A DNA stretch of 64,000 nucleotides from Pirellulales bacterium (lineage in GTDB: Bacteria; Planctomycetota; Planctomycetia; Pirellulales; JADZDJ01), in the NCBI GenBank assembly GCA_035499655.1, contig DATJYL010000112.1, positions 2,250-66,249 of the forward strand. Direction: 5' to 3'. This document shows positions 6,261-54,001 of this stretch, in pieces (within the stretch, counting starts at the first letter, position 1; the number at the start of each line of letters is the position of its first letter). Under the pieces are notes generated by a model, which worked only from the letters and a program-made list of their open reading frames with translations, was not told the origin of the DNA and ran no database searches. The position numbers were made by a program, and so were the translations under genes.

Positions 6261-8090
6261 TCAGGACGCATTACGCCGTCCCGGCGCGCCGGGATTCGCC
6301 GACAAATCTATCGTACCCGTTGGGCAGCGGAGATTGAACAGGCCGAAGATTTCCTGCTGCGTCAGGCCCAGGGCGTGGGGCCGGGCGGCATCGGAGAAAA
6401 TGGTGTCGAACAGTTCGCGCTTTTCGGCCAGCACTTGATCGATTCGTTCTTCGATGGTGTCGCGCGCTAAAAAGCGTGTGACGGTGACCGGCCCGGCCGA
6501 GCCGATGCGATGGGCGCGGTTGACGGCCTGATCTTCCACGGCCGGGTTCCACCAGCGATCGAACAGAAACACGTAACCGCAAAATTGTAAATTCAAACCT
6601 ACGCCGCCGGCGCCGTAGGTCATCAGCAGCACATGGTGGCGGCGATCGGCGCGAAACTGTTCCAAAATGGCATCTCGCTGCCGGGGCGAAATTTGCCCGT
6701 GATATTCCAACGGGTGCAAATGGGCCAGTTGGCCGCGAAGCCGCTGGGCGGCGCCGACCCATTGGCTGAAGACGATGGCTTTTTGCCCGCTGGCGGCGAC
6801 TTCGTCCAAATCGGCGGCCAGGCGTTCCAGCTTGGCGCTGACGCCGGTCGCCGGATCGAAATTGCAAATTTGCTTGAGCCGCAAAATCAACTCGAAGACG
6901 TGCTGGATGGTGACCGCGTCCCCCAGCTCGGTCAGCCGCAGCACGCCTTCGTCCTCGGCCAGCGTGTAGGTTTCGCGCTGCTCGGGCGAAAGATCGACAT
7001 CGGCGTCGCGGAACAATTTGGGGGGCAAATCGGCCAGAACTTGCGATTTGGTGCGTCGGATGATGTAATCGCCGGCGGCCCGGCCAAGGCTGCGCGGCTT
7101 CATATTCCCCGATAAATTGCCCGGCGCGACAAACTCAAAAATGCCCAGCAAATCGTCGGGCGAGTTTTCCACCGGCGTGCCGGTCAGGGCCCAACTGCGG
7201 CGGCGCGAAATCGAGCAGACGGCTTCGCTCGTGACGCCGCTGCGGTTTTTGATGCGCTGTGCTTCGTCCAGAATGACCAAATCGAACGGCTGCGAATGCC
7301 GGGCAACAATTTCCGCGTCGCGGCACAGCAATTCGTAATTAGCGATTTTCACGGGCGGCTCGGCCTGTTGCCATTGCCAAGCGCGGCGGGATTGATCGCC
7401 CTCGATCACCGCCACGGGAAGCTCCGGCGCCCATTGCGCCAGCTCGCGCTGCCAGTTCGTCACCAGCGGTTTGGGGCACACAATCAGCACGCTGCAAATT
7501 TCTCCGGCATGCAGCAGCATGCGCAGCGCCGTGATGGCCTGCATGGTTTTGCCCAGTCCCATTTCATCGGCCAGCACCGCGGACACACGGGGATATAAAA
7601 ACGCCACGCCCTGCATTTGATAGGGGAACGGATGATGCGGAAAATCGAGCCCCGCAGCGCCGGGACGCGCCAGCAATGTTTCCAGCGAAGGCTGCAGCAC
7701 GTACCGCAAGCGGTCGGAAAGTTTGATGACGTCGGCCGGCGGCAGGAGCCGAGTGGAAGTTGTGGCGCGTCTTGCCGAAGCGCTGGTCCAAGCGGCACGC
7801 CGGCTGATTACCCGAGGACTGAAAAGTTTCTTGTTTGATGCCCCGGTCGGCGGCGCCGGCAGACAAAAACTAAAACTCCGCACCGCCGGGCCGGTCGAAA
7901 CGATGGACGGTGATAACACACCCGGACGCGGCAGCGCCAACGGCGGTGAAAGCAGTTCCACTGCCCCCTTGGTAACCAGCGGCACGCCATGCACCGCGGG
8001 CGGTGTCACGCTCAAAGCGGAAAAACTGGTGACACGTAGAGCGCGACTTGCCTGGTGAACCGCAGGGCTGTTGGCAGCGGGATGATTCAT
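6261..8090 (-). CDS. SNF2-family (DEXD/H) helicase/ATPase
   Basis: LADEMGLGKT, VILDEAQRIKN, ALTGTPVEN, KAIVFSQW, GGVGLNL, DRWWNPAVEDQAVNRAHRIG; ATG 8090 overlaps the upstream stop (ATGA). Confidence 0.93.
   Translation of the reverse strand: MNHPAANSPAVHQASRALRVTSFSALSVTPPAVHGVPLVTKGAVELLSPPLALPRPGVLSPSIVSTGPAVRSFSFCLPAPPTGASNKKLFSPRVISRRAAWTSASARRATTSTRLLPPADVIKLSDRLRYVLQPSLETLLARPGAAGLDFPHHPFPYQMQGVAFLYPRVSAVLADEMGLGKTMQAITALRMLLHAGEICSVLIVCPKPLVTNWQRELAQWAPELPVAVIEGDQSRRAWQWQQAEPPVKIANYELLCRDAEIVARHSQPFDLVILDEAQRIKNRSGVTSEAVCSISRRRSWALTGTPVENSPDDLLGIFEFVAPGNLSGNMKPRSLGRAAGDYIIRRTKSQVLADLPPKLFRDADVDLSPEQRETYTLAEDEGVLRLTELGDAVTIQHVFELILRLKQICNFDPATGVSAKLERLAADLDEVAASGQKAIVFSQWVGAAQRLRGQLAHLHPLEYHGQISPRQRDAILEQFRADRRHHVLLMTYGAGGVGLNLQFCGYVFLFDRWWNPAVEDQAVNRAHRIGSAGPVTVTRFLARDTIEERIDQVLAEKRELFDTIFSDAARPHALGLTQQEIFGLFNLRCPTGTIDLSANPGAPGRRNAS
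6279..6300. repeat. Palindromic core TCCCGGCGCGCCGGGA(TTCG) inside the 3' end of the SNF2 gene
   Basis: 16-bp perfect palindrome 6279-6294; same core at 14397-14433 and 16013-16044. Confidence 0.8.
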
Positions 8091-8644
8091 GCGGCTTTGG
8101 CGCTGGCACGCTGGGCTTCGTCGATGGCCGCCCGAATGCGCTCGAACGGCTCGCACAGATCGAACAAATCTGCGAGCGTGGTTAACCGCTGCACAATGAG
8201 CGCCTGGTCGGCGGCAAATCGGGCGGCCACACGCAGGTGGTTTTGCCTTATAACGAATTCCGGGGTCTCGCCGGGAACCTCGATCGGGGCCTCGCCAGCG
8301 GCGGCCGAATTGGCAAGCGAAATGGTTGCGCAGACCAGCGCCGTGGGCACATCAATGTGCTGCCGGACCGCCAATGCGGCAACTTGCTCCACGAACAAAA
8401 CCGACGGCCGGCGCTGCGTGGCATTCAATAGGGTCGCGCCGATTTGCTCGCCGTATAGATACGGCTCCAGCGTAGGACCGTACAAAATTTGCTGGGCCCG
8501 ATTGGGCTTCACCGGGGCCGTGCAATGGAATTCCAGCGGCTGGCCGACGGCGTTGAGCAACAAATAACCGCCGAATAGGCCGTGTACTTCATGTTCCACA
8601 ATGCTCAAAAAGCCGAGGCAGCCTCTGGTGCGATCGTCGGGCAT
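8087..8644 (-). CDS. Conserved hypothetical protein, translationally coupled to the SNF2 helicase
   Basis: 185-aa ORF with protein-like motif GGYLLLNAVGQPLEFHCTAPVKPNRAQQILYG; stop overlaps the helicase start. Confidence 0.75.
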   Translation of the reverse strand: MPDDRTRGCLGFLSIVEHEVHGLFGGYLLLNAVGQPLEFHCTAPVKPNRAQQILYGPTLEPYLYGEQIGATLLNATQRRPSVLFVEQVAALAVRQHIDVPTALVCATISLANSAAAGEAPIEVPGETPEFVIRQNHLRVAARFAADQALIVQRLTTLADLFDLCEPFERIRAAIDEAQRASAKAA

Positions 8645-9055
8645 GGGCAGATATATTCCCCAATTTCTAAGATGTCGACGGTATTATGATGCTAGCACGG
8701 TTGTTCGGAGCTGCTGCTCTTGCTGGGATTCCGTGTGATCGATCCGAGGCCTCTCAACACCTTATTTATCGGCTCGCCCGAGTGGTCTTTGGGCAGCTAG
8801 ATTTCGCAGTCTCAGGCAAATAGCCGGGTCAAATGCGAAAAACGCTTTCAGAACAGCCTTGGCATCGCCGACACAAAGTTGATTAACCGGACGGTAAAGC
8901 GGGGCTGGCAGGATGGCCCCGGTGGGCCGCTTTCCCGACCGATGCAGCCGACACTTTCAGATTTCTCCGCCTCGCTTCGCCAAAGTAGTGGCATGCGCCG
9001 AGGTTTGTTGTTAAATTAAGGGTTTAACACTTTTCTGACACAGGGCTCCATTTCG

Positions 9056-9523
9056 ATGACGCAATCGACCCGCACCGCTGCACAGCTCTATACACAGCTC
9101 GATATCACCACGGCCTCCACTCCATCGCCAGCGCCGGTTACAGGCAACTCGCTGGAACAGAGCCAACTGTTGCACGATATTTTGTTGGCCTTGGATCGGC
9201 AAAACGAGTTGATGGAAGAATTGATTTCCCAGGTGGGCGCCGCGCAAAAACAGCGGGCCAGCGAACTTTCGCAATGGAAAGAGGCCAATCCGCGCTTAGC
9301 GCACAAATGCCGCATTGCGTCGGAAGCGCTAACCAAAGTGCAAACGGAGTTCCTGGCCACCTTAGCCGCTGAAGTGAACGAAAATCCCGAGGCCTTAATC
9401 GACGGCGAGTTTTTCTTGAACGAATTCATCGATCGTTACGGTCCTCGACTAGCACATCTAAACGGCGTGCTTCAGGTATTGGCGCAACTGGGCAGCGCAC
9501 CCAATCCGACCAACGCCCAATAA
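9056..9523 (+). CDS. Hypothetical alpha-helical protein
   Basis: 155-aa ORF, amphipathic Q/E/L-rich helices, first gene of a + strand run after a ~400-bp divergent intergenic region. Confidence 0.7.
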   Translation: MTQSTRTAAQLYTQLDITTASTPSPAPVTGNSLEQSQLLHDILLALDRQNELMEELISQVGAAQKQRASELSQWKEANPRLAHKCRIASEALTKVQTEFLATLAAEVNENPEALIDGEFFLNEFIDRYGPRLAHLNGVLQVLAQLGSAPNPTNAQ

Positions 9524-9592
9524 CGCGCCTAAACCATCATCCATACCGAGCCTCATCCGCGAGGAAGCGGAGGCGGCCACGGTCCCCTCGAT

Positions 9593-10510
9593 TTGGCGGA
9601 AGCAACTCAGGATATTTTACGTGTGTCTCACGTGGAACTGGTTCAAGTGCGCACGGCCGATGGTTTGCGACTGGATGGCGCCCTGGCTATACCCAAGCAT
9701 GCCGATCACGCCGTAGTTTCGCGAGGCTCCAACGTGCAGCATCGACCGCCGGTCGATGCCGCGCTGTGCGTGCACGGTACGGGAAGCAATTTTTACGGCG
9801 CGACTTTATTCGAGGGCCTTACGCCCAAACTGCTGGCCGATGGTCTGGCCGTGTTGCGGGTGAACACTCGCGGTCACGATGTGGTGAGTGTGGCCAGCAC
9901 GCTGCATGGTCCACGGCGATTAGGCTCGGCGCTGGAGCAGGTGGAAGATTGTCGGCACGATTTGATTGCCTGGCTGGAGTTTTTGGCGTCGCGCGGGTTC
10001 AAATCGGTGGCGCTCATTGGGCACAGCCTGGGAGCGATTAAGGCGCTGCATACCGCCGCTCGAATTCAACATCCGGCGCTGGCGCGACTGGTGGCAATTT
10101 CGCCGCCGCGGTTGTCGCATTCACATTATTTGGCCTCCGAGAAGCGGGAAGAATTCCTGACACAGTATCGGCTTGCTCAAGAACATGTCGCAGCTGGACG
10201 CGGTGATGCCTTGATCGAAAGGCCATTGTGGTTTTTGGCGTCGGCCGCCAGTTTCATCGACAAATATGGCCCCGACGAAAAATACAATTTCCTGCGCGAG
10301 TTGAACCGCCTGCATCTGTCCACGTTGTTTGCTTTTGGCGGCCTTGAATTGCAGGAAGCGAATTTTTGCGGCCTGCCGGAAGATATTTCCGCCGCCGTCT
10401 CACCAGCGCAAAATATCCAAGTGGTGACCATCGCCGGGGCCAACCACATTTACACGGGGCAAATCGACGAGCTGGCCCACAAAATTCGGGCGTGGCTGGC
10501 GACAAACTAA
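9593..10510 (+). CDS. Alpha/beta-fold hydrolase (DUF1749-like)
   Basis: HGTGSNFY, nucleophile elbow GHSLG, C-terminal GANHIY (catalytic His); start uncertain (TTG 9593 or a downstream GTG). Confidence 0.85.
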   Translation: MAEATQDILRVSHVELVQVRTADGLRLDGALAIPKHADHAVVSRGSNVQHRPPVDAALCVHGTGSNFYGATLFEGLTPKLLADGLAVLRVNTRGHDVVSVASTLHGPRRLGSALEQVEDCRHDLIAWLEFLASRGFKSVALIGHSLGAIKALHTAARIQHPALARLVAISPPRLSHSHYLASEKREEFLTQYRLAQEHVAAGRGDALIERPLWFLASAASFIDKYGPDEKYNFLRELNRLHLSTLFAFGGLELQEANFCGLPEDISAAVSPAQNIQVVTIAGANHIYTGQIDELAHKIRAWLATN

Positions 10511-10570
10511 GTTCGGCCGATAAAATCAGTTGTTTGCTGTTTCTGATACTGAATCGCCTAGGACCGCCGC

Positions 10571-11704
10571 ATGACGCCAAATCCAGTGACCTCGCCTGCC
10601 GATCTTAGTGCTTTCGTCGCCGCTGCCCGAGACCGGCTGAATGCCCACGTGTACGAAACCGTGCAGTGGCATTTTCATCCGTCAACGGGCTGCCCATTTT
10701 GGCTGGCGAAGGCGAGCGAGTTGAAATTCAATCCGCTGACGGAAGTGCGCTCCTTCGACGATTTGAAAAAGTTTCCGGAGTTCCAAGACGAATGGCTCCG
10801 CGGCGGTCCCGTGCGGCGGTGGGTGCCCAAAGCGCTGGCCGATAAGCCGATTTATGTGTTCGAAACCGGCGGGACAACCGGCATTCCTAAAAGCCGCATT
10901 GCCAGTGAAGATTTTCGCATCGATTACGAACTGTTCAGCCAAACGCTCCCCGAAAAATACTTTCCTCACGGCTCCAATTGGCTGATGTTGGGGCCATCCG
11001 GGCCGCGGCGGCTGCGGCTGGCCGTAGAGCATTTGGCGCAGCACCGCGGCGGCATTTGCTTTTGCATCGATTTGGATCCACGCTGGGTCATCAAGCTCAT
11101 CAAGCGCGGGTGGATGGAACACTTGGAAGCGTACAAGCAGCACTGCATCGAACAGGCGATTACCATTTTGCGGGCCGGTCACGACATCAAGTGCATGTTC
11201 ACCACGCCAAAATTGTTGGAGGCATTAGCGCTGGAATTGGAAAAGAGGGGCTCCAGTATTCCCCAGGAGGGCATCACCGGCATTTTCAGCGGCGGCACGG
11301 AGTTTACCCCGCAATGGACGCGGTTTGCCGTCGAAGAATTTCTGGGCGGGCCGCCGGAGCAAAGCGGCGTGTACATGACGCCCACCTACGGGAACACGCT
11401 GATGGGCCTGGCCGCCAGCAAGCCGGTCACCGCCGCCGACGGTTACAAAATTAGTTACTACGCGCCGCAACCCCGGGCCGTAGTGGAAGTGGTGGATTTC
11501 AAAAATTACAACAACGTGGTGGGCTACGGCCAAACCGGCCGGGCAAAATTGACCACGCTGACGAAAGAGTTTTTTGTGCCCGGCTTCATGGAGCGCGACG
11601 AAGGAGAACGTGAACCGCCGTACGAAAAATATCCCTGGGACGGCGTCAGCGGCGTGCGCCCGTTTCATGAACTGGCCGAAGCCACCACGGTGGGCGTGTA
11701 TTAG
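10571..11704 (+). CDS. LuxE/PaaK-like acyl-adenylate-forming enzyme (acyl-protein synthetase-like)
   Basis: AMP-binding loop FETGGTTGIPK, SGGTEF, TYGNTLMG; short 377-aa ANL-like fold lacking a typical C-terminal domain. Confidence 0.75.
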   Translation: MTPNPVTSPADLSAFVAAARDRLNAHVYETVQWHFHPSTGCPFWLAKASELKFNPLTEVRSFDDLKKFPEFQDEWLRGGPVRRWVPKALADKPIYVFETGGTTGIPKSRIASEDFRIDYELFSQTLPEKYFPHGSNWLMLGPSGPRRLRLAVEHLAQHRGGICFCIDLDPRWVIKLIKRGWMEHLEAYKQHCIEQAITILRAGHDIKCMFTTPKLLEALALELEKRGSSIPQEGITGIFSGGTEFTPQWTRFAVEEFLGGPPEQSGVYMTPTYGNTLMGLAASKPVTAADGYKISYYAPQPRAVVEVVDFKNYNNVVGYGQTGRAKLTTLTKEFFVPGFMERDEGEREPPYEKYPWDGVSGVRPFHELAEATTVGVY

Positions 11705-11735
11705 AGTGCGGAGTGGGTAGTGCGGAGTGCGGAGT
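11704..11735. repeat. Left heptamer arm (GAGTGCG type) of the four-helix-bundle cassette
   Basis: gagtgcg gagtggg tagtgcg gagtgcg gagt; begins at the last base of the upstream TAG. Confidence 0.9.
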
Positions 11736-11771
11736 TTTCAATCGGGATTAATTTCGAACAGGGCAAGGAAA

Positions 11772-12146
11772 ATGAGTTCCAACGATAAAGCATCGAAAGA
11801 GCAGTTGCGACCGCGGACTTATCAATTTGCTTTGCGAGTTATCCGCTTAGTCGATAGTTTACCGCGGTCACGCTCGGCAGATCACATCGGTGGGCAATTA
11901 CTACGTTGTGGCACTTCGGTGGGAGCAAATTACAGAGCTGCTTGCCGGGCCAGAAGTCCAGCTGAATTTCGAGCCAAATTAGGGATCGTTGAGGAAGAAT
12001 CCGACGAGGCGGCATTTTGGCTACATATTTTGGGAGATTCAAAGCTGATGAAGAAAGAACAGTTGATCGAGTTGTTGAAAGAATCCAATGAAATTACTGC
12101 AATGGTGGTTGCATCGATAAAAAGTTCTCGTCGATCCGATTCTTAA
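11772..12146 (+). CDS. Four-helix-bundle protein (23S rRNA IVS protein family PF05635/TIGR02436-like; Avd-like fold)
   Basis: RTYQFALRVIRLVDSLP...QLLRCGTSVGANYRAACRARSPAEFRAKLGIVEEESDEAAFWL...ESNEITAMV; AAGGA RBS before ATG 11772. Confidence 0.92.
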   Translation: MSSNDKASKEQLRPRTYQFALRVIRLVDSLPRSRSADHIGGQLLRCGTSVGANYRAACRARSPAEFRAKLGIVEEESDEAAFWLHILGDSKLMKKEQLIELLKESNEITAMVVASIKSSRRSDS

Positions 12147-12219
12147 ACTCCGCACTCCGCACTCTGCACTCCGCACTCCCCACTCCCCACTCCGCACTCC
12201 CCACTCCCCACTCCGCACT
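12147..12219. repeat. Right heptamer arm (ACTCCGC/ACTCCCC), 10.5 units, inverted relative to 11704-11735
   Basis: actccgc actccgc actctgc actccgc actcccc actcccc actccgc actcccc actcccc actccgc act; starts right after TAA 12146 and ends 1 bp before ATG 12221. Confidence 0.95.
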
Positions 12220-12220
12220 T

Positions 12221-13666
12221 ATGCTCAACCTTCCCGTTCTCCGTTGGGGCAAGCCGTACGATTCGCTGGAGAAGGACCAGGTGGTTCATTTCATCAGCGG
12301 CGAGCCGATTGCGGCGGTTAGCCAAGCGAACGGAGCCTTGCTGCAGCGCGATATGCGCAATGCTAAGAACGCCCGCAAGGCGCTGCTCGATTTCAAGCCC
12401 GAGGACTTGATCGAGCGGATTAAACAGGCGGCGGATTTGTATTTGAGCGCCACGCTGCCAATGGGCGATGGCACGCAATCGCCCGAGCAGTTTGCCCGGC
12501 AGCAGTCGGCCAGCACGGGTTTGCCCGAACACATGGCCCAGGCCAACATGGCCAAAAATCACTTCGTGTTGACGCACATGGAGCAAATGCTCGATGCGCT
12601 CACCCGCGGGCTACCGTTGGCAATACTGTCGCGCGGCTACGGTGTAGAAAGCCGTGGCGTAGTGGTGAGTTATCAGTGCCAAGCGCCGGCGCTGGGGGTG
12701 GTGTTGCCGTCCAATTCGCCGGGCGTGCATACGCTGTGGCTGCCGGTGATTCCCATGCAAGTGGGCTTGGTGCTCAAGCCTGGGCCGCAAGAACCGTGGA
12801 CGCCCTACCGCATGACGGCGGCGTTTGTGCAGGCGGGCATTCCGGCGGAAGCGATTAGCATTTATCCCGGCGGGGCCGATGCCGGCGCGGCCGTGCTGGC
12901 CAGTTGCCAGCGGAGCATGATCTTCGGCGGTACAGCCACGGTGGAGCGGTACAAGGGCAATCCGAAAGTCAGCGTGCATGGGCCGGGGTTCAGCAAAATT
13001 CTGCTGGGCGACGATGTGGTTGACGAGTGGGAGAAATATCTCGACGTGATGGTCGAGAGCGTGTTCGTCAACAGCGGACGGGGGTGCATCAACTGCTCCA
13101 GCATTTGGGCCTCGCGTCACACACAGGAAATTGCCCAAGCGATTGCCAAGCGAATTGGCCCGGTGGAACCCAAGTCGCCGGAAGACCCGACGGCGGCGCT
13201 GGCGGCGTTCACGGTGCCCGGACAAGCGGCAGGCGTGTGGAAAAGCATTGAGGCAGACTTGCGCGAAGCCGGCGTGGAACATATCACCGCGATGTATGGT
13301 CCGCGGCTGGTGGAACTGGAGCGGTGCGCGTATCTGCGGCCGACGGTGCTGCACTGCGAATCGCCCACGCTGGCGGCGTCCAAAAAAGAATTCATGTTCC
13401 CGTTTGTGAGTGTGGTGAATTGCCCCCAGGAAAAAATGATCGAGTCGATCGGTTACACGCTCGTCGGCACGGCCATCACCAACAATCCGCAGTGGCAACG
13501 CGAACTGACCGATGCCACGAATATCGATCGGTTGAACATCGGGCCAATTCCCACCACCAAGCTCGATTGGCTCCAGCCGCACGAAGGGAGCATCGTGGAG
13601 TTTTTGTTCCGCGCCAGGGCCTATCAACTCCCACCTGACCGGGTGGCGACCCTGGCGAATAAATGA
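12221..13666 (+). CDS. Aldehyde dehydrogenase-superfamily protein / LuxC-like acyl-CoA (acyl-protein) reductase
   Basis: VVLPSNSP, LVLKPG, MIFGG, HGPGFSK, catalytic Cys in NSGRGCINCSS, KEFMFPFVSVV. Confidence 0.85.
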   Translation: MLNLPVLRWGKPYDSLEKDQVVHFISGEPIAAVSQANGALLQRDMRNAKNARKALLDFKPEDLIERIKQAADLYLSATLPMGDGTQSPEQFARQQSASTGLPEHMAQANMAKNHFVLTHMEQMLDALTRGLPLAILSRGYGVESRGVVVSYQCQAPALGVVLPSNSPGVHTLWLPVIPMQVGLVLKPGPQEPWTPYRMTAAFVQAGIPAEAISIYPGGADAGAAVLASCQRSMIFGGTATVERYKGNPKVSVHGPGFSKILLGDDVVDEWEKYLDVMVESVFVNSGRGCINCSSIWASRHTQEIAQAIAKRIGPVEPKSPEDPTAALAAFTVPGQAAGVWKSIEADLREAGVEHITAMYGPRLVELERCAYLRPTVLHCESPTLAASKKEFMFPFVSVVNCPQEKMIESIGYTLVGTAITNNPQWQRELTDATNIDRLNIGPIPTTKLDWLQPHEGSIVEFLFRARAYQLPPDRVATLANK

Positions 13667-13668
13667 TC

Positions 13669-13729
13669 AACGCAAAGGTATGCAGAGAAATGTCGTCTGT
13701 GCTCTGCGTGCCTCCGCGTCTTTGCGGTT
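13669..13729. repeat. Imperfect inverted repeat with 8-9-bp internal period (CGCAAAG / CGCGGAG / CGCAGAG) between convergent genes
   Basis: aacgcaaaggtatgcagag ... ctctgcgtgcctccgcgtctttgcggtt; related arms at 51492-51668. Confidence 0.65.
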
Positions 13730-13742
13730 CAATTTAATTTGG

Positions 13743-14384
13743 CTACGGCTTGCGGAATTCCGCCCGGTAGACCGCCTCGCCGTGCAGCCGCATGCGGCGC
13801 TCGAAATGGGTCCGGAAATCCAAATCGTGCGCCGCTGCCTGTTCGGCCACCGGCAGCGGGCCGACCAATGGTGTCACCCTGGCAATCAATTCCAACGTGG
13901 TCTGAAAATACTCTTCCACGTCGGTCCAAAAATGAAGTGTGCCGCCCGGCCGCAAAACCCGCTCTGCCTGACGCAGAAACTGCTCGCTCATCACCCGCCG
14001 CTTTTTGTGACGCTTTTTCCACCACGGATCGGGAAAATAAACGTGCACGGCCACAGCGCACTGGTCCGGCAAAAACTCCGCGAAAACCCGCCGCGCATCC
14101 CCATGAATCAGCCGCGCGTTTTCCACCCCGCGCTTCGCCAGCCGGGCTGCCGAAAACCGCGCATATTTGGCCGCGATTTCCATTCCCAAAAAATCGTGTT
14201 CCGGGCGCTGGCTGGCTGCGGCACTTAAAAACAGCCCCTTGCCGCTGCCGACTTCCACTTCCAACGGCGCGGCGCGGCCAAACACGGCCACGGAGTCCCA
14301 CGGATGCGGCAACCGCTCCGGCGCAAGCAAATGCTCCGACAAATTCAGCGCCGGATCGATTTTTCGCAGCGAACGGCGTGACAT
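13743..14384 (-). CDS. trmB: tRNA (guanine-N7)-methyltransferase TrmB
   Basis: LEVEVGSGKG, FLGMEI, HVYFPDPWWKKRHKKRR, GGTLHFWTDVEEY, THFERR. Confidence 0.95.
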   Translation of the reverse strand: MSRRSLRKIDPALNLSEHLLAPERLPHPWDSVAVFGRAAPLEVEVGSGKGLFLSAAASQRPEHDFLGMEIAAKYARFSAARLAKRGVENARLIHGDARRVFAEFLPDQCAVAVHVYFPDPWWKKRHKKRRVMSEQFLRQAERVLRPGGTLHFWTDVEEYFQTTLELIARVTPLVGPLPVAEQAAAHDLDFRTHFERRMRLHGEAVYRAEFRKP

Positions 14385-14396
14385 GCAGAATCATCC

Positions 14397-14433
14397 GAAT
14401 GGCGAATCCCGGCGCGTCGGGACTCGTCATTTC
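14397..14433. repeat. Degenerate copy of the AATGACGAATCCCGGCG|CGCCGGGATTCGTCATT palindrome
   Basis: gaatggcgaatcccggcgcgtcgggactcgtcatttc, filling the rhomboid-trmB gap. Confidence 0.8.
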
Positions 14434-14436
14434 TAA

Positions 14437-15321
14437 TTAGTCCCAGCCTTCCGGCCAGCGTGGATCGTACGAATCGGGCCGACGTCGTGAAACATCGGGG
14501 GACTCCAAACCGAAACCGTGCCGCCGGTTCCAATCTTCGTCGGCATCCAACACCTCAGGCGGCTCCTGCGGCGCAGCCAGGGAAAACAGCGGCATCATCA
14601 CCGCCCCAACAATAAAGCCCCCCACGTGCGCCCACCAGGCCACACCCCCTGCCATTTGTCCCCCCAGCGCTCCCAGGCCGCTGAATAACTGCATCCCAAA
14701 CCAAAAAATTAAAAATACATAGGCCGGCAATTCGATCACCGTGACAAACAAAAACAAAATCACCAGTGTTTTGATCCGCGCATGCGGATACGTCACCGCA
14801 TACCCGCCCAACACCGCCGCAATCGCCCCGCTGGCCCCGATGATCGGCGTCGCGCTGCTCGGGTCCATGGCCCAATGCGCGGCCGTGGCCGACAATCCCC
14901 CCACAAAATAAAACACCGCGTAGAGTGCATGCCCCAGCTTATCTTCGATGTTATCGCCGAACAAAAGCAGATAGATCATGTTGCCGATCAAATGCAGCCA
15001 GCCGCCGTGCAGGAACATGCACGTTACGGCCGACAACATAATCTGTTGCGGTTGGGCGCGCAATTGCACCACGCGGGGCACCCCCACAATTTGACCCCAC
15101 CACAAAAATTGCTGCTGGCCGATCTGTACATCGACAATTTTGTGCGGATCGGAAACCTGCGCGACGCGCGCCGGCACAAATCCCCATTGCGCGGTCACCA
15201 TTTCCTGTTGCTGCGGCGGCAGGCTCATAAACCACAACAACGAAACGACGTTAAGGGCCACGAGAATATAAGTGACCACGGCCCAGCGCTTCGTCGGAAT
15301 GGTATCGGCAAATGGAAACAT
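14437..15321 (-). CDS. Rhomboid family intramembrane serine protease
   Basis: MFLHGGWLHLIGNMIYL, IIGASGAIAAV (GxSG), VAWWAHVGGF (catalytic His). Confidence 0.93.
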   Translation of the reverse strand: MFPFADTIPTKRWAVVTYILVALNVVSLLWFMSLPPQQQEMVTAQWGFVPARVAQVSDPHKIVDVQIGQQQFLWWGQIVGVPRVVQLRAQPQQIMLSAVTCMFLHGGWLHLIGNMIYLLLFGDNIEDKLGHALYAVFYFVGGLSATAAHWAMDPSSATPIIGASGAIAAVLGGYAVTYPHARIKTLVILFLFVTVIELPAYVFLIFWFGMQLFSGLGALGGQMAGGVAWWAHVGGFIVGAVMMPLFSLAAPQEPPEVLDADEDWNRRHGFGLESPDVSRRRPDSYDPRWPEGWD

Positions 15322-38829: not shown

Positions 38830-39564
38830 TCACGTGCCGCGCACGTTGCCGAACCACTCGATGTGCTTTCGGGGGCAGAAATTCAACTGCTGCCGGCGGC
38901 AGTACGGTTCTAACCAGGTTGCGGTGTGCATGAGCGTTTCGACGTTTATTCCCTGCGGCATCAATAGCACGCGGGAGCGTTTGACTTGTGGAAATTCTTC
39001 CAGCCATGCTTCGGCGGCCAGGCAATCGTCGGGTGAATCGACCACGAATTTAATCTGATAGGGATACTCTGTCACCAATCGCCGTATGACGTCGGGCAAG
39101 TGCCGTGATTCTTCATGCCGCACATTCCAACGCGGTTCTTGAGATGCCGGCGGCGCGGAGCCGGCCAGCTTGGGACTGATCGACATCAAATCGCACTCCA
39201 GCGGCAAATACAGTGTGCCGGCCGTTTCCACCGTGATGTGCAGACCGCGCTGGCGCAAAGCCGCGGCCAGTGGCACCAGTTCGGCAAACAACATCGGCTC
39301 GCCGCCAGTCAGAACGACATGACCGCATTTATAATCTCCCTCTCCCTTTGGGAGAGGGTCGGGGTGAGGGTGTCCCAGCAATTCATCGACCTGTCGCAGA
39401 ATTTCCTCGACCGATAAATCTTCTCCTTCCGGCTCCCAGGAAGTGTATGGCGTATCGCAAAACCAGCACCGCAGGTTGCAACCGCTGGCGCGGACAAACA
39501 CGCTGGGCGTTCCGGTCAGAAAGCCCTCGCCTTGCAGCGATCGAAATATCTCGGCAATACGCAT
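38830..39564 (-). CDS. queE: 7-carboxy-7-deazaguanine synthase QueE (radical SAM) with an in-frame palindrome insertion
   Basis: MRIAEIFRSLQGEG, FVRASGCNLRCWFCDTPY, VVLTGGEP, VETAGT, SISPKL. Confidence 0.93.
   Translation of the reverse strand: MRIAEIFRSLQGEGFLTGTPSVFVRASGCNLRCWFCDTPYTSWEPEGEDLSVEEILRQVDELLGHPHPDPLPKGEGDYKCGHVVLTGGEPMLFAELVPLAAALRQRGLHITVETAGTLYLPLECDLMSISPKLAGSAPPASQEPRWNVRHEESRHLPDVIRRLVTEYPYQIKFVVDSPDDCLAAEAWLEEFPQVKRSRVLLMPQGINVETLMHTATWLEPYCRRQQLNFCPRKHIEWFGNVRGT
39338..39370. repeat. CCCTCTCCC-NNN-GGGAGAGGG REP-like hairpin in frame within queE
   Basis: ccctctccc ttt gggagaggg tcggggtgaggg; encodes PHPDPLPKGEG between DELLG and HVVLTGGEP. Confidence 0.8.
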
Positions 39565-39572
39565 GATGAAAG

Positions 39573-39656
39573 CAATTAGCGGCTGGCAATTAGCGATTAG
39601 CAACGGACGGTATCATTCATTTTCTGCGATTGGCTAGTTGCTAATTGCTAATTGCT
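39573..39656. repeat. Inverted CAATTAG-type heptamer arms between queC and queE
   Basis: caattag cggctgg caattag cgattag caa ... cgattgg ctagttg ctaattg ctaattg ct; supplies the queC stop (TAG 39648-39650). Confidence 0.85.
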
Positions 39657-40385
39657 GTATTCTAGTGGATCGGTCATTCCCGCTTCGGCAAAGCCTTTGC
39701 GGCGGAGCAAGCAAGCGTCGCAGCGGCCGCACGGCTTGCCACTTGCGTCGGGATCGTAACAACTGTATGTCAGACCGTAATCTACGCCTAATTGCGTGCC
39801 GCGGCGGATTATTTCCGCTTTGGTCATCGTAATCAGCGGCGTGTGAATTTTGAATTGCAGTGTCCCTTCCACGCCCGCCTTGGTAGCCAAATTCGCCAGC
39901 CGTTCGAACGCAGCAATATATTCCGGCCGGCAGTCGGGATAGCCGCTGTAATCGATGGCATTGACGCCCAGAAAAATGTCGGCCGCTTCCACCGTTTCGG
40001 CATACGCTAGCGCTAGCGACAACAGCACCGTGTTCCGCGCTGGCACATACGTCACTGGAATGCCGTGTCCCATTTCATCGGCGCTGCGTCCCTTGGGCAC
40101 GGCAATGTCCGCGGTTAGAGCGCTGTGGCCGAAACGAGCTAAATCGATTCGCACTGTTTCGTGCCGTTTTACTCCCAAGTGTTTTGCCACCCGAGCAGCC
40201 GCTTCCAGTTCGAACCGGTGCCGCTGGCCGTAATCGACCGACAGAGCAAACAGTTCGTATCCCTCTGACTTGGCCACGGCGGCTGTGGTCGTCGAATCTA
40301 GCCCGCCGGAGAGCAAAATGACGGCTGATTTTCCCCTTGATGGCGCATTCGGTGTGTTCGTTGTCGCGGAGGCTCTGGTTTCCAT
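39648..40385 (-). CDS. queC: 7-cyano-7-deazaguanine synthase QueC
   Basis: [50 protein letters not shown]. Confidence 0.97.
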
Positions 40386-40430
40386 CCTTCCATGTTGGCA
40401 CAATTAAAGTTTGAAGAAAAGGAGCTGCAC

Positions 40431-40790
40431 GTGCCCGACAATTTTCGCAACACGCTGGAAACCTTCGCCAACCAATATCCTGGGCGAGATTACAGCATTG
40501 AAATCATCTGCCCAGAGTTCACTTCCGTTTGCCCGAAAACCAGCCAGCCCGATTTCGGCACGCTAACTATCACGTACACGCCGGAAGCCAAATGCGTGGA
40601 ACTGAAAAGCCTGAAACTGTATTTGCAGCAGTTCCGCAACGAGGGAATTTTTTACGAAACGGTGACGAACCGCATTTTGGATGATTTGGTGGCGGTGCTT
40701 GCGCCGCGCCGCATGAAACTGGTGGCGGCTTTTACGCCGCGGGGTGGGATCAGCACGAATGTGATCGTGGAATTAAAATCTGATACATGA
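40431..40790 (+). CDS. queF: NADPH-dependent preQ0 reductase QueF (unimodular type)
   Basis: [42 protein letters not shown]; GTG with AAGGAG RBS. Confidence 0.95.
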
Positions 40791-40817
40791 ATCTGTAAAC
40801 GGCAATCCCTCGAGTCT

Positions 40818-41288
40818 TCAATATGTTCTGGCCGTCGGCAGCATTTTCCAATCGTGAAATAGTTGCTTGCACTCTGCGGACAGCACGCCGCCGATGAGTT
40901 TTACTTTGCTGCGGCCCAGCGATAGAATTTGCTGGGCGTCGATGTACAACTCGTTGAAGCCCGCATCGGCTGCGTCTTGGACGGTCGCGCCGAAGTAAAC
41001 CGTCTCTACTCGGGCCCAGTGCAAGGCTGACATGCACATCGGGCACGGCTCGCAGGTAGTGGCGACAATGCCCCCTTCCAGAAAAATTTTGCCCGTGTGT
41101 TTGCAGCCAGCCCGAATGGCGTTCACTTCGGCGTGGGCCGTGCTGTCGATGGTCGTCAGCACCGTGTTGTGCGCGGAGGCGATGACTTTTCCCCCCTGCT
41201 CAATCGCACAGCCAAACGGACTATTGCCCGTCTTAAAACCCTCGCGGGTTTTGTCGATCGCTAGCCGCATTAGGTCTTCTGGTGACAT
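40818..41288 (-). CDS. Nucleoside/guanine deaminase (zinc-dependent cytidine deaminase fold)
   Basis: SPFGCAI, TAHAEVNAIR, TCEPCPMCMSALHWAR, DAADAGF. Confidence 0.9.
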   Translation of the reverse strand: MSPEDLMRLAIDKTREGFKTGNSPFGCAIEQGGKVIASAHNTVLTTIDSTAHAEVNAIRAGCKHTGKIFLEGGIVATTCEPCPMCMSALHWARVETVYFGATVQDAADAGFNELYIDAQQILSLGRSKVKLIGGVLSAECKQLFHDWKMLPTARTY

Positions 41289-41387: not shown

Positions 41388-41807
41388 CTACACGCAATAC
41401 GGCCGGAGTTTGCCGGCCACATTTTCCGGAATGGGAATTGATTGCAGCACGTTACCGGTCGCGGGCAACCGGCAACAAACGGCGGTCATGCTGCCGGTGG
41501 CCACAGGTCGCTCGTCATGCGACACTTCGAATTTGTACGTCACGCTTTTGTTTCCCAGTCGGGAAATGCTGAGCGTGATGGTGAGCACATCTTCAAAGCG
41601 CACCGCGCTTTGAAAATCGCACTGGGCATTGACGCGCGGCCAACTGAACGGGCCCGTATCATCTTTCGCCAGCACACTCAGCCCCAAGTGCCGCAAGAAT
41701 TCGTGCTCCACTGATTCCATCAGCGGAAAGAACGAGGCGAAGTGCATGATGCCCGCCGCATCGGTATCGCGAAATTCCACTCGGCGCGTGGCGGTGAAAG
41801 AAGGCAT
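41388..41807 (-). CDS. Acyl-CoA thioesterase (4-HBT / hot-dog family)
   Basis: RRVEFRDTDAAGIMHFASFF, CDFQSAVRFED, KSVTYKF. Confidence 0.88.
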   Translation of the reverse strand: MPSFTATRRVEFRDTDAAGIMHFASFFPLMESVEHEFLRHLGLSVLAKDDTGPFSWPRVNAQCDFQSAVRFEDVLTITLSISRLGNKSVTYKFEVSHDERPVATGSMTAVCCRLPATGNVLQSIPIPENVAGKLRPYCV

Positions 41808-41811
41808 AAAT

Positions 41812-41888
41812 GCAGAAGGCAGAAGGCAGAAGGCAGAAAACACCAAATCGTGCGTGCGATTCTGCTTTCTGCAGTCTGCCTTCTGCCT
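41812..41888. repeat. Inverted GCAGAAG-type heptamer arms between rpsR and the thioesterase gene
   Basis: gcagaag x3 gcagaaa ... ttctgct ttctgca gtctgcc ttctgcc. Confidence 0.9.
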
Positions 41889-43097: not shown

Positions 43098-44483
43098 CTA
43101 CCCCGCCGCGACAGCAACACGCTTTACCTCGCGGTACAATTCGCGGTGTTCTTGGGCCATTTGCAGGGCCGTGTATTGGGCGTGAATCACTTGCCGGCCG
43201 CGGCGTCCGTGTTCGGCAGCCAGCGCGGGATTCAAGATGTATTCGCGCAACTTGCGGGCCAGATCGCCGGCGTTTTCCGGCTCGCACAGCAGGCCGCCGC
43301 CGGTATGCTCGATGATTTCCGGGAACGAGCCATGCCGCGGCACGACGACCGGCACGCCGTTGGCCAGCGCTTCCAATACGGAAAGCCCCTTGCTTTCGCG
43401 ATATACCGTGGGCACGCTCATCACGTCGAGCGATTGCAAAAAGGCAATTTTTCCGGCGCGATCCAATTCGCCCGCATATTCAAAATGGTCGGCCAAATTT
43501 AACTCTTGCACGCGCTGCAGGATGGATTGAAAATACGGTTCGTCGCCGGACGATTTGTAACCGGCGGCCTTCAAACGCAGCCGGGGCACAGCCCCGTCAG
43601 CACCATCAGCCCGCAGCAATGCAAACGCTTCGACCAGCAGATGCAACCCCTTTTCCGGAGCGATGCGAGAAAAGAAGCCGATGGTAAACGGCTCGTCTGC
43701 TTGGCTGCCACGGCGTTGACCGTGCCCGGCCAAATGCAGCCCGTGGCGGATGACTTCGATGCGATTATGTGGAACGCTTAAATAATCGGCCATGAAGTCG
43801 GCGAAGTAGCGGTTGTACGCCACGAACACATCGACATCGCGCGCCCGCTGGCGCAACAGCTCGCGCGCCTGGCTGTAGTGCGGTTCGGACAATTGCTCCA
43901 GGAACAAATCCTCGCCCGCCAATCCGCAGATGATGGGCACGTTCAGCCGCTCGCGGAGCCGGCGCGCCATGCCCAGCAAGAGCGCGTTGGAAAGATGAAT
44001 CACCTGTGGCCGGCCTTCCTGTTCCAGCCACGAAGCCAGCTTTTCGAGTTCTTTTCGTTGCCGGCCTTGTTCGCCCTGCAGCGTGGAAATAGTGAGGGCG
44101 CCCAATTTAGCCACCGGCATGCCGGCGCTGCGCGCGGCCAGCCAGTTGAGCAGCTTGGGGGAATCGAGCCAGCGATCTAAGAACCAGGGTGTGTGTCGAA
44201 ACAGTGACGAGTTTTGCTGCAAGTAAACATTCACGCCGCCAAAAAAAACGCGGTTCAGGCTGACATTTTCTTCATCGGTGCGCAGCGGCGTATAGGTAGG
44301 CACCAGCAAAACATCCTCGCCCAAATCCGCCAGTGCTTTAGCCAAGGCGTTGTCGTGCAAGCAGGAACCGCAATAGCGCGTGGCGGCCCCCGCGGTGAGA
44401 TACACAATCCGCAACGGTGAACCATCGCTGTATCGAGCTGACGCTTCGGGAATTTTGGCCATAGAACTGGTCTGTAGCGCCAT
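43098..44483 (-). CDS. Glycosyltransferase family 4 (GT-B)
   Basis: YCGSCLHDNAL, GFFSRIAPEKGLH, ESKGLSVLEALANGVPVV; start uncertain (possibly TTG 44414). Confidence 0.9.
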   Translation of the reverse strand: MALQTSSMAKIPEASARYSDGSPLRIVYLTAGAATRYCGSCLHDNALAKALADLGEDVLLVPTYTPLRTDEENVSLNRVFFGGVNVYLQQNSSLFRHTPWFLDRWLDSPKLLNWLAARSAGMPVAKLGALTISTLQGEQGRQRKELEKLASWLEQEGRPQVIHLSNALLLGMARRLRERLNVPIICGLAGEDLFLEQLSEPHYSQARELLRQRARDVDVFVAYNRYFADFMADYLSVPHNRIEVIRHGLHLAGHGQRRGSQADEPFTIGFFSRIAPEKGLHLLVEAFALLRADGADGAVPRLRLKAAGYKSSGDEPYFQSILQRVQELNLADHFEYAGELDRAGKIAFLQSLDVMSVPTVYRESKGLSVLEALANGVPVVVPRHGSFPEIIEHTGGGLLCEPENAGDLARKLREYILNPALAAEHGRRGRQVIHAQYTALQMAQEHRELYREVKRVAVAAG

Positions 44484-44491
44484 AAGGCAAG

Positions 44492-44516
44492 CGCCGGGCT
44501 AGCCCGGCGGCTAAAC
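44492..44516. repeat. 18-bp palindrome plus GCTAAAC tail (REP-like)
   Basis: cgccgggct|agcccggcg followed by gctaaac. Confidence 0.65.
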
Positions 44517-45176
44517 ATCCACCGGCGCGGCAATCTCCAGCAATTCTACCGCGGGTTCACAGTTGCAGTGAATAATGGCGGTGCGGCCATACGTGGTTTG
44601 TTGCGGGGCGATGCCGAACATTTGGCATAAGTCGATCCCCGGCTGCACGCGCCACAGCCCTATGAGTTCGATTTTCCGCATCACGTTATGGCGAATCAGG
44701 ATGCGACCCAGCGGCGTTTGCTGGATTTCAATTTCTCGCCGCACTTCGTCGCTCAGGAAATCGAAATTCAACCGCACGATGCCAAATTGCACCACCCGCC
44801 GGTCGCTGTGGCGCATGAGCAAAATCCGCCTCGCATAATGGTTCCCGTCCAGCTTTTTTCCCAACACCCGCACATCCACCGGGCCTTCGTAAAATTCTTC
44901 CATGGCCACGGTCATGTGATGGCAATGATCCAGTAATTTGCGATAAGGTCCCGGCACTTCTTCTGGGAGCGATTTTTCAAAGTGCCCCAGGCCATCGGGC
45001 AAGCCGTAAAACAGCCCGACAAGACTCGATAACTCAGCGTTGACGGGGCGAGATGGCACAGGCGGTTGGCACAGGGCAGGAGGCAGCGGGCGGGACTGCA
45101 AGCGCAAGGCAAGTCCAAAGGGATCCAGGTAGCAATACAATGTCGCTGGGACCAATCTTAGGGCGGCGGTGGTCAA
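44511..45176 (-). CDS. Chorismate-lyase (UbiC)/UTRA-fold-like protein
   Basis: LLDHCHHMTVAMEEF, YARRILL, VQFGIVR, PLGRILIRHNV; start uncertain (GTG 45059 possible). Confidence 0.6.
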   Translation of the reverse strand: MTTAALRLVPATLYCYLDPFGLALRLQSRPLPPALCQPPVPSRPVNAELSSLVGLFYGLPDGLGHFEKSLPEEVPGPYRKLLDHCHHMTVAMEEFYEGPVDVRVLGKKLDGNHYARRILLMRHSDRRVVQFGIVRLNFDFLSDEVRREIEIQQTPLGRILIRHNVMRKIELIGLWRVQPGIDLCQMFGIAPQQTTYGRTAIIHCNCEPAVELLEIAAPVDV

Positions 45177-45198: not shown

Positions 45199-46416
45199 CT
45201 ACACTTGCCGACGCTCCAACACCATGTCGATCAAGTGGAAAAACAATCGCCGTAGCGGTTCGGGCTGAATGTCCGCGGCCAAAGCTTCGGCCCGTTGCTG
45301 GTGCTTGTACACCCATCGATCAGCCGTTTGGAAAGCGCCCGCTTCATCGTACAGGCGCCGGATTTCACGCAGCTTTTCGTCCGACAAGGGTAGTTCGTTG
45401 GCCAACGATTCCAACTTGCCGCGCTTGTCCACCGGCAAACCATCCAGCGCCAAGGCCCACAGCAGCGTCGGGCGTCCGCCGCTAATATCTCCGGCGGCCA
45501 GCAGTTTATTGTGATTGTCGCCCAACCAATCGTTCATATCGTTGATAATTTGGAAGGCGATGCCCAGGTCGCGGGCGAACTGAGCAATGGGCTGCAAGTA
45601 ATGTTCCGTCGGGCCGGCCAAACGCAAACCGGTGTGCAAAGCCGCCTCGAAGGCCGGAGCTGTTTTGAGCGCATAAATTCTGAGCGTATCTTGCGGCGTA
45701 AGTTGTTTGTTGTGCGAATCGCGCCAGATCAGTTCCGCGCCTTGTCCTTCGCTCAATTTCATGTGGGCATCGGCAATATGATCGAGAATGTCACTGACCA
45801 CGTCGGGGCCCAGGGCTTTCGCTTCGCGGCTGACTAGGCGGTAGCCCAGACCGATTAAATAATCGCCCACGTTGATTGCCGTCGGTGTGCCGTATTTGCG
45901 ATGCAGCGTGGCCGTGCCGTAGCGGAACTCGTCGTCATCTTCAATGTCGTCATGCACCAGCGAGGCCTTGTGAAACGTTTCGATCGACAAGGCGCAGCGC
46001 TTCACCGCATCGGGCAATTCCAGTTCCGTATGCGCTTCACCGTTTCGCGCGGAATTGGCGCGGACGGGTTCCTCCGTCCGCAACGCCTGATAAGCCGCCA
46101 GCGTAATGAATGGGCGTGAATGCTTGCCCCCCTTGGCTAAAAAATCGTAGGCCAGGGCTTCGGTGGCTGCCAGCGGAGTAAGACCTTGCAACCCTTGTCC
46201 GTTCAGCCGTTCGCCATGATCGCGATTTGCCGCAGACAATGGGCCATGCAACCGCGGCGCCAATCGCTCCAACTCTTGCGGTTGAAACATGACGGCCGCG
46301 GCCTGCATCAGGCGGGCGTAACCGTCGTCAATTTGTACACTGTGACGGCGATTGGAAGCGGACCCCGCCGACGAATTTCCATCACCTCGGACAGATTGGG
46401 GGAGTGCAGTTGCCAA
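45199..46416 (-). CDS. Polyprenyl diphosphate synthase family protein
   Basis: GGKHSRP, ETFHKASLVHDDIEDDDEFRYG (first Asp-rich motif), GQGAEL, KTAP, GIAFQIINDMND (second motif, DD replaced by ND). Confidence 0.9.
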   Translation of the reverse strand: MATALPQSVRGDGNSSAGSASNRRHSVQIDDGYARLMQAAAVMFQPQELERLAPRLHGPLSAANRDHGERLNGQGLQGLTPLAATEALAYDFLAKGGKHSRPFITLAAYQALRTEEPVRANSARNGEAHTELELPDAVKRCALSIETFHKASLVHDDIEDDDEFRYGTATLHRKYGTPTAINVGDYLIGLGYRLVSREAKALGPDVVSDILDHIADAHMKLSEGQGAELIWRDSHNKQLTPQDTLRIYALKTAPAFEAALHTGLRLAGPTEHYLQPIAQFARDLGIAFQIINDMNDWLGDNHNKLLAAGDISGGRPTLLWALALDGLPVDKRGKLESLANELPLSDEKLREIRRLYDEAGAFQTADRWVYKHQQRAEALAADIQPEPLRRLFFHLIDMVLERRQV

Positions 46417-50308: not shown

Positions 50309-50329
50309 CAATGGCTGAGCTCTGGTCAA

Positions 50330-53860: not shown

Positions 53861-54001
53861 GACGCCGCTTCCGCCGTATTCGTTTTGCTTCACACTTCTG
53901 CAGCCGAGTCTCTTTCGGCGCGTGCTAAAGGCAAGTATCTTGTAAACCATGCGGGCTTGTGTTCCAGGCATTGCACCGTCCTATTTTCGATCATTGCTTG
54001 C

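Follow-up and report, generated by a model that had tools for sequence, protein, structure and literature searches.

Two-protein carboxylate reductases, in which an adenylate-forming ligase acts together with a separate partner of the aldehyde dehydrogenase (ALDH) fold, have been encountered in a few antibiotic and pigment pathways only and their biochemistry is scant. EhpF was reportedly described by Bera et al. in 2010 as an ANL enzyme devoid of the C-terminal domain, which together with EhpG was proposed to convert phenazine-1,6-dicarboxylate to the 6-formyl compound via an acyl-adenylate. The Pantoea plasmid gene that follows ehpF is annotated as 'aldehyde dehydrogenase family protein' and is EhpG according to the gene nomenclature of PMC11278526. 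As reported in PMC10179220, which cites Suzuki et al. 2007, GriC and GriD of the Streptomyces griseus grixazone pathway reduce 3-amino-4-hydroxybenzoate to the aldehyde via acyl-AMP. Here, a locus of this kind was analyzed in an uncultured Pirellulales bacterium (genome of 4.5 Mb, 97% complete). It lies in a stretch of 64,000 nucleotides on contig C112, hereafter called the window, and comprises a ligase gene (10571-11704) and a gene for an ALDH-like protein (12221-13666), both on the plus strand. From homology, residue pattern, co-inheritance and a predicted interface we propose, with a probability of about 0.75, that the two proteins together act as a carboxylic acid reductase of the kind represented by EhpF/EhpG (GriC/GriD), of which we infer reaction direction, cofactor and substrate. 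The planctomycete pair is an uncharacterised new member of a known, little-studied enzyme kind.

Results

Gene content of the locus

In a preliminary description of positions 9056-13666, three co-directional genes, encoding an alpha/beta hydrolase with a GHSLG motif, an adenylate-forming enzyme with a TGGTTGIPK motif and an ALDH-superfamily cysteine enzyme, were read as a luxD/luxE/luxC-like trio without luciferase. All three were found as described, though among five co-directional open reading frames (ORFs) of the plus strand. Since hundreds to thousands of full-length relatives exist for all of them, the ORFs are considered real genes:

9056-9523, plus strand: ORF for a 155-aa helical protein, function not assigned
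9593-10510, plus strand: alpha/beta hydrolase, 305 aa, GHSLG at residues 143-147 (Abhydrolase_6, 47 bits)
10571-11704, plus strand: EhpF-type adenylate-forming enzyme (ligase), 377 aa, with ETGGTTGIPKSR (PF00501, 19 bits only)
11727-12146, plus strand: four-helix-bundle gene, 139 aa (PF05635, 62 bits; TIGR02436, 86 bits)
12221-13666, plus strand: EhpG-type ALDH-superfamily protein, 481 aa, catalytic Cys289 (PF00171, 68.7 bits)

The wetland DNA metagenome from which the genome stems had also been assembled independently, and contigs of that assembly matched positions 11494-14562 without differences; these contigs are short, with a depth of about 5x, and 8267-11470 was uncovered. Scans for promoters and terminators gave results at chance level only.

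The ligase and its ALDH-like partner

In a phmmer search of the PDB, residues 17-366 of the 377-residue ligase were aligned with residues 14-354 of the 366 residues of EhpF (3L2K/3HGU) at an E-value of 1.8e-38, and the next matches were canonical CoA ligases with E-values of 0.02 or worse. Identity to the homologues from Pantoea, Streptomyces and haloarchaea is 31-36%, with about 31% to EhpF. The ligase corresponds to the ANL N-terminal domain only, harboring the P-loop ETGGTTGIPKSR at residues 98-109, the hinge ERD at 341-343 and a 34-residue tail. As the chain stops 34 residues past the hinge, the ligase is without the ANL C-terminal domain. Aligned with EhpF and with the homologues from haloarchaea and Streptomyces, the ligase retains the P-loop, a YGNT motif and the ERD hinge. 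No NCBIfam model matched the ligase, and the family is of modest size (267 clusters at 50% identity, E 1e-30 or better).

All ligases of the family, among them EhpF and the homologues from Streptomyces and haloarchaea, have G-V/I-Y as their last three residues, and the protein described here ends in GVY. That the free C-terminus is conserved hints at a docking site for it, possibly on the partner or in the ligase's own active site.

Two further homologues lie on plasmids. The one on plasmid p1 of Streptomyces angustmyceticus (L003:5995-7077), annotated as 'arylcarboxylate reductase', is encoded between MqnD and MqnE in a second futalosine-like cluster, and no ALDH-like partner is annotated within the 13 kb viewed; a literature search found no paper on 'arylcarboxylate reductase'. 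On plasmid 2 of Halalkalicoccus jeotgali (L004:4508-8566) genes for a sodium:solute symporter, an EhpF-like and an ALDH-like protein stand in a row, an order found in many planctomycetes.

The ALDH-like protein aligned end to end with EhpG (residues 4-468, BLASTP E 6e-28) and matched the Halalkalicoccus partner protein with an E-value of 7e-35, and NCBIfam gave weak generic ALDH matches only. Cys289 (nucleophile) and Asn165 (oxyanion) are invariant in 18 sequences including EhpG, and the NAD-contacting Glu390 is kept. The position of the general-base glutamate, which lies in the ELGG motif of hydrolytic ALDHs, is occupied by His253 in the planctomycetes, by Gln in EhpG and by Tyr in the haloarchaeon. 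Beyond the Pfam match extend the C-terminal 60 residues, with an invariant family-specific block that includes QPHEG at 452-456. Judged from the sequences, this residue pattern is as expected for an enzyme that would hold an acyl-thioester and reduce it instead of hydrolysing it.

Co-inheritance and predicted interaction of the pair

To what extent ligase and ALDH-like protein belong together was analyzed in an even sample of 201 Planctomycetota genomes, in which ligases of 53% identity or more were counted as orthologues. Ligase orthologues were detected in 39 of the 201 genomes and ALDH-like orthologues likewise in 39, and the two lists are identical. Of 19 orthologous loci that were fetched, 17 have the two genes adjacent, directly abutting in 16 of these 17. 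The pair is also kept where it is unlinked, with the genes megabases apart (G043, G156), on separate contigs (G118) or 20 kb apart (G074). It is chromosomal in planctomycetes and unusually well conserved, at 53-80% identity across classes.

Structure prediction of a complex of ligase and ALDH-like protein, from alignments made for this analysis, gave a score of 0.66 compared with 0.00 for the best control. Of 80 solved complexes 58 came up to this mark, as did 2 of 110 mismatched pairs. The result was consistent between runs, and the predicted local distance difference test (pLDDT) value of the partner was 91. The predicted interface is built from conserved ligase segments (180-186, 217-224 and 246-256, the last with the invariant residues Q248, R251, E255 and E256) and from the N-terminal 45 residues of the partner (15-17 and 35-43). 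The model supports the idea that both proteins bind each other; among the PDB sequence matches there is no solved complex of this ligase/ALDH-like family.

A proposed route from acid to aldehyde

In the proposed mechanism, the ligase would use ATP to convert a free carboxylic acid, most likely an aromatic one, into an acyl-adenylate, from which the acyl group would be transferred directly onto Cys289 of the bound ALDH-like partner. The partner would reduce the thioester with NAD(P)H and release the aldehyde, because the glutamate that would hydrolyse the thioester is absent. An iron alcohol dehydrogenase, which is encoded next to the pair in relatives and at 50.3-51.5 kb here, probably carries the aldehyde on to the alcohol.

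PF00171 membership and the intact Cys, Asn and NAD-binding Glu390 would also fit an ALDH-like protein that oxidises an aldehyde or is a CoA-acylating dehydrogenase, with the ligase working for a different acceptor, for instance in forming an amide or ester bond. However, the hydrolytic glutamate is gone family-wide, and the protein is strictly co-inherited with a ligase that, having no C-terminal domain, is unable to make CoA thioesters. Together with the predicted interface and with the reported reduction of an acid by GriC/GriD, this renders a pair other than a reductase improbable.

Relationship to the Lux fatty acid reductase

The assumed kinship with the Lux proteins was not borne out, as PF04443, PF05893 and PF02273 had no match to genes of the window in hmmscan searches (E up to 10) and six-frame genome searches. 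For LuxE (PF04443), the ligase was unmatched at E up to 10 and the six-frame search of the genome returned a single match of 12.6 bits on another contig. For LuxC (PF05893), the ALDH-like protein was unmatched and the genome matches lie outside the window on contigs C24 and C62. For LuxD (PF02273), the hydrolase was unmatched, and no LuxD structure is among its PDB matches. A match was obtained for PF00171, with 68.7 bits on the ALDH-like protein. The window holds no luciferase-family gene, in line with the preliminary description, and the sole PF00296 match of the genome is on another contig.

In LuxE, a conserved cysteine of the synthetase carries the acyl-protein intermediate. No Cys column is conserved across the ligase family, the Cys-rich columns 163 and 208 not being found in EhpF or other distant homologues, which argues against a LuxE-style acyl-protein intermediate. 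In a Lux-type fatty acid reductase a LuxD-like hydrolase would provide the fatty acyl group to a self-acylating LuxE-like synthetase, from which it would pass to a LuxC-like reductase. The three proteins (305, 377 and 481 aa) do resemble LuxD, LuxE and LuxC in length and in the broad class of fold, and their genes are co-directional with a gap of 60 bp between hydrolase and ligase. Against this stand, apart from the unmatched profiles and the missing cysteine, the absence of the hydrolase from 19 of 19 orthologous loci, its detection in 3 of 201 genomes, and the homologues examined in annotated records, which belong to aromatic-acid pathways. A Lux-type system is therefore highly improbable.

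The hydrolase upstream of the pair

The hydrolase has both a nucleophile elbow with Ser145 (GHSLG) and an HGxGxNFY oxyanion motif, which are invariant. It had been described as the third member of a unit with ligase and ALDH-like protein, an arrangement that the synteny survey contradicts: it was not found within 9 kb of the ligase at any of the 19 orthologous loci across the phylum, and it was found in 3 of 201 genomes, as against 39 for the pair. In one of the three, G156, the genes for hydrolase, ligase and ALDH-like protein are all far apart.

For a view centered on the hydrolase, 80 loci of its homologues were fetched, 58 of which had enough downstream sequence. The ligase is the next gene in 17 of these 58. 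Among the loci with both flanks, 14 have the 155-aa gene and the ligase, 10 the 155-aa gene only and 1 the ligase only, and one ligase-less locus runs on into unrelated housekeeping genes. Close relatives keep the order 155-aa gene, hydrolase, ligase, ALDH-like gene; as the SNF2 and 185-aa genes upstream are conserved too, the adjacency of hydrolase and ligase can be inherited gene order. At 6261-9523 the genes for an SNF2 helicase and the 185-aa protein, both on the minus strand, and for the 155-aa protein on the plus strand make up a block that is kept across many Pirellulales-type genomes. This block accompanies the hydrolase; the 155-aa gene is associated with the hydrolase and with the divergent genes for the 185-aa protein and the SNF2 helicase, and not with the pair. 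Neither the 185-aa nor the 155-aa protein had a significant family match.

Hence, the hydrolase is probably a neighbor in one lineage and not part of the reductase. It could be a true accessory in this Pirellulales lineage, an esterase or thioesterase that frees the acid just before reduction. Its position would suit this role, since it is directly upstream and co-directional here and in 17 of 58 loci (gaps mostly 136-480 bp, the adjacent ligases being about 60-84% identical), as would the invariant Ser145 elbow and oxyanion motif. Nevertheless, we consider it unlikely: the same genomes share the SNF2, 185-aa and 155-aa genes upstream, the 155-aa gene and hydrolase occur without ligase at 10 loci compared with 1 locus for the reverse, one such locus leads into housekeeping genes, and in G156 all three genes are far apart. 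What stands of the carboxylic-acid reduction module of the preliminary description is thus the ligase/ALDH-like pair, which would be ATP- and NAD(P)H-dependent, would probably act on an aromatic acid and would feed a larger pathway; the hydrolase is to be removed from it.

An inserted cassette and a rearranged cluster

In this genome the two genes of the proposed reductase are separated by a short element:

11704-12219, plus strand: four-helix-bundle cassette of 516 bp, gene 11727-12146 between arrays of 7-base repeats

The arrays consist of GAGTGCG x4.6 (11704-11735) and ACTCCGC x10.4 (12147-12219), so that the element spans from the ligase stop codon to the start codon of the ALDH-like gene. 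The cassette is inserted, splits the pair and is not part of the enzyme system. The four-helix-bundle gene belongs to the 23S rRNA intervening-sequence (IVS) protein family, and the distant genome G172 (L019:8526-8831) likewise has one between the two genes of the pair, with a cassette protein that is 39% identical. In a close relative (L025:8624-9007) such a gene is found between ALDH-like gene and iron alcohol dehydrogenase gene, the operon having been struck repeatedly at intergenic sites.

In distant planctomycetes, the ligases of which are 52-60% identical, the pair lies inside a long conserved cluster. Its first part comprises BamB/PQQ_2-type propellers, a sodium:solute symporter, ligase, ALDH-like protein, iron alcohol dehydrogenase and often another propeller; it continues with a HemN-like radical SAM protein, a small protein (about 195 aa), a CmlS-like flavin halogenase (208 bits), a GT4 glycosyltransferase, a 4HBT thioesterase and a PaaK-like ligase. 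In two close relatives the ALDH-like gene is followed directly by those for iron alcohol dehydrogenase and propeller, after which comes an NHL or radical SAM gene. In the window, the corresponding block is intact on the minus strand at 41.4-51.5 kb:

50330-51481, minus strand: iron alcohol dehydrogenase (PF00465/PF25137), 36.7 kb from the pair
49127-50329, minus strand: BamB/PQQ_2-type beta-propeller, in the order seen after the iron alcohol dehydrogenase in close relatives
47956-49047, minus strand: NHL propeller, order as in close relatives
46572-47879, minus strand: HemN-like radical SAM protein, order as in close relatives
45199-46416, minus strand: polyprenyl synthetase, within this second gene block
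44511-45176, minus strand: small protein of predicted chorismate-lyase fold (BaaA-like), from AlphaFold/Foldseek
43098-44483, minus strand: GT4 glycosyltransferase, conserved cluster member in distant planctomycetes
41388-41846, minus strand: 4HBT-fold thioesterase, conserved cluster member in distant planctomycetes

The iron alcohol dehydrogenase is 50% identical to that of the cluster at locus L023 and 83-87% identical to those following the pair at L025 and L026. An unrelated RNA recognition motif (RRM) gene lies between the glycosyltransferase and thioesterase genes. From the gene order in relatives we infer that about 38 kb were inverted, with one of the breakpoints immediately behind the ALDH-like gene; no repeats common to the putative breakpoints (about 13.7 and 51.5 kb) were found. 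The halogenase (contig C191) and a pair of PaaK-like ligase and propeller are located on other contigs among unrelated genes. On contig C197 (L109:4976-7642), the PaaK-like ligase and the BamB-type propeller are still adjacent, with TrpD and a gene for pyrroline-5-carboxylate reductase as neighbors. In this genome, parts of the ancestral cluster are dispersed over at least four places. For the sodium:solute symporter, encoded ahead of the pair in Halalkalicoccus and many planctomycetes, no homologue was detected in this genome (tblastn, 1e-8).

Between the cluster thioesterase and an EamA-like region, genes for a QueE-like radical SAM protein, QueC and a TadA-like deaminase are found (38830-41288), and a PNP_UDP_1 nucleosidase (53885-54781), possibly of the methylthioadenosine (MTA) or futalosine hydrolase type, follows LpxB.

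Candidate substrates

The protein encoded at 44511-45176 has no Pfam match. Its AlphaFold model (pLDDT 79.8) was matched by Foldseek to the DUF98 protein 2NWI (E 3e-8) and to product-bound E. coli chorismate lyase UbiC 1G81 (E 3e-5), and its Atlas neighbors carry Chor_lyase or Rv2949c-like domains. We regard this protein as a candidate source of a hydroxybenzoate substrate. Its family is present in 26 of the 201 genomes, all within the 39 that have the pair. An orthologue of the halogenase (39% identity or more), in which the motifs GxGxxG and WxWxIP mark a typical flavin-dependent halogenase, is present in 36 of the 39 pair genomes, 35 by search and this one by tblastn. Neither gene was found in the other 162 genomes, where counts resting on 'not found' are lower bounds, as illustrated by the halogenase of this genome, which the genome search missed and tblastn found on C191. 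The genes for the chorismate-lyase-like protein and the halogenase are often adjacent, even if the pair is megabases away (G070, G095).

For BaaA, a chorismate-lyase-like protein, and BaaB, a flavin-dependent brominase, of Planctomycetales strain 10988 it was proposed, without genetic proof, that they lead via 3,5-dibromo-4-hydroxybenzoate towards 3,5-dibromo-p-anisic acid (bioRxiv 10.1101/723874). The EhpF-like genes examined in annotated records are found in the contexts of phenazine-1,6-dicarboxylate (phz genes), of DAHP synthase and PabB, and of an mqn-like cluster. Because of the co-occurrence with chorismate lyase and halogenase, the BaaA/BaaB arrangement and these aromatic-acid contexts, we favor 4-hydroxybenzoate made from chorismate, possibly halogenated, as substrate of the pair, with the aldehyde and then the benzyl alcohol as products, although this assignment is tentative and would not surprise us if it proved wrong. 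More doubtful still is the wider proposal that the pair is one arm of a strictly co-inherited set, consisting of chorismate lyase, flavin halogenase, iron alcohol dehydrogenase, HemN-like radical SAM protein, GT4 glycosyltransferase, thioesterase and exported beta-propellers, that would lead to a halogenated derivative of hydroxybenzaldehyde or hydroxybenzyl alcohol.

A different substrate would be the futalosine intermediate 1,4-dihydroxy-6-naphthoate or a prenylated derivative, which would place the pair in quinone metabolism. This is suggested by the Streptomyces 'arylcarboxylate reductase' homologue between the MqnD and MqnE genes, by homologues of MqnA, MqnC, MqnD and MqnE in this genome, and by the polyprenyl synthetase (45199-46416) inside the second gene block of the window. 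However, the pair is found in 39 of 201 Planctomycetota genomes only, the mqn homologues are on other contigs, and the polyprenyl synthetase query matched L013 only among the other loci, so that it is not a conserved cluster member. As the co-occurring genes point towards the product of a chorismate lyase, we give a role in quinone metabolism a very small chance. The homologues of MqnA, MqnC, MqnE and MqnD are encoded on contigs C113, C138 and C215, and because of their presence this genome probably makes menaquinone by the futalosine route.

Discussion

Several points weigh against ligase and ALDH-like protein forming a carboxylic acid reductase. Adenylation by canonical ANL enzymes requires a lysine of the C-terminal domain, and the ligase is without that domain. 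The activity of EhpF/EhpG is said to have been proposed by Bera et al. in 2010 from a structure and a knockout, and we know of no biochemistry for any planctomycete member of the pair. The co-occurrence counts were drawn from related genomes and overstate independence. Moreover, a cassette with hairpin-forming repeats parts the two genes and the iron alcohol dehydrogenase block is 37 kb off, so that co-transcription in this genome is no more than a possibility. Finally, the only planctomycete compound tied to genes of the BaaA/BaaB type keeps its carboxyl group.

If the proposed halogenated product is correct, the pair would point to bacteria throughout the phylum as a source of the halogenated benzyl alcohols and aldehydes that have hitherto been credited to algae and fungi, and given the strong conservation of the genes possibly to a conserved physiological role. 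It may represent a missing branch of the only halogenated aromatic pathway so far proposed in the phylum. A 2025 review of planctomycete metabolism does not mention a carboxylate reductase. The co-inheritance with chorismate lyase and halogenase provides a concrete substrate panel, 4-hydroxybenzoate and its halogenated forms. This window shows that the hydrolase can be cleanly rejected, that the operon is split by a cassette and probably by an inversion, and that the pair is linked, genome by genome, to genes of the BaaA/BaaB type. As regards annotation, these genes have recurrently been misread as LuxE/LuxC or PaaK, which is corrected here.

Comparison with known systems

With LuxD/LuxE/LuxC the proposed system would share ATP-dependent activation of an acid, transfer to the Cys of an ALDH-fold reductase and NADPH-dependent reduction to the aldehyde, and the proteins are of similar size. 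It differs in that none of the genes has a Lux Pfam match, the ligase has no acylation Cys, the hydrolase is not co-conserved, and the homologues examined are found in aromatic- instead of fatty-acid contexts. Single-polypeptide carboxylic acid reductases (CARs) perform the same net reaction of acid, ATP and NADPH to the aldehyde. In contrast to these, two proteins are used here, with an ALDH-fold reductase and with neither a carrier domain and phosphopantetheine arm nor an SDR-type (short-chain dehydrogenase/reductase) domain; Pfam recognized on the pair a weak AMP-binding match (ligase) and Aldedh (partner) only, which is not the CAR architecture.

GriC/GriD likewise consist of an AMP-binding and an ALDH-like protein and are reported to carry out the same reaction as proposed here. 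They are likened by this reported reaction, whereas the sequences compared were Streptomyces homologues from other clusters (32-36% identity).

A close likeness is with EhpF/EhpG of Pantoea agglomerans (D-alanylgriseoluteic acid; EhpF structures 3HGU, 3HGV, 3L2K). Identity is only 23-31%, and EhpF/EhpG act on phenazine-1,6-dicarboxylate as part of an antibiotic cluster carried on a plasmid, whereas the planctomycete cluster is without phz genes. In both systems, however, an ANL ligase without the C-terminal domain, alignable over its full length and ending in GVY, is encoded next to an ALDH-fold partner that aligns end to end, has the Cys and lacks the general-base Glu.

The likeness to BaaA/BaaB is one of protein type as described for that strain, and in this genome the halogenase sits on another contig. 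In the conserved planctomycete cluster, the same two types of protein are encoded by adjacent, co-directional genes, and they co-occur with the pair genome by genome.

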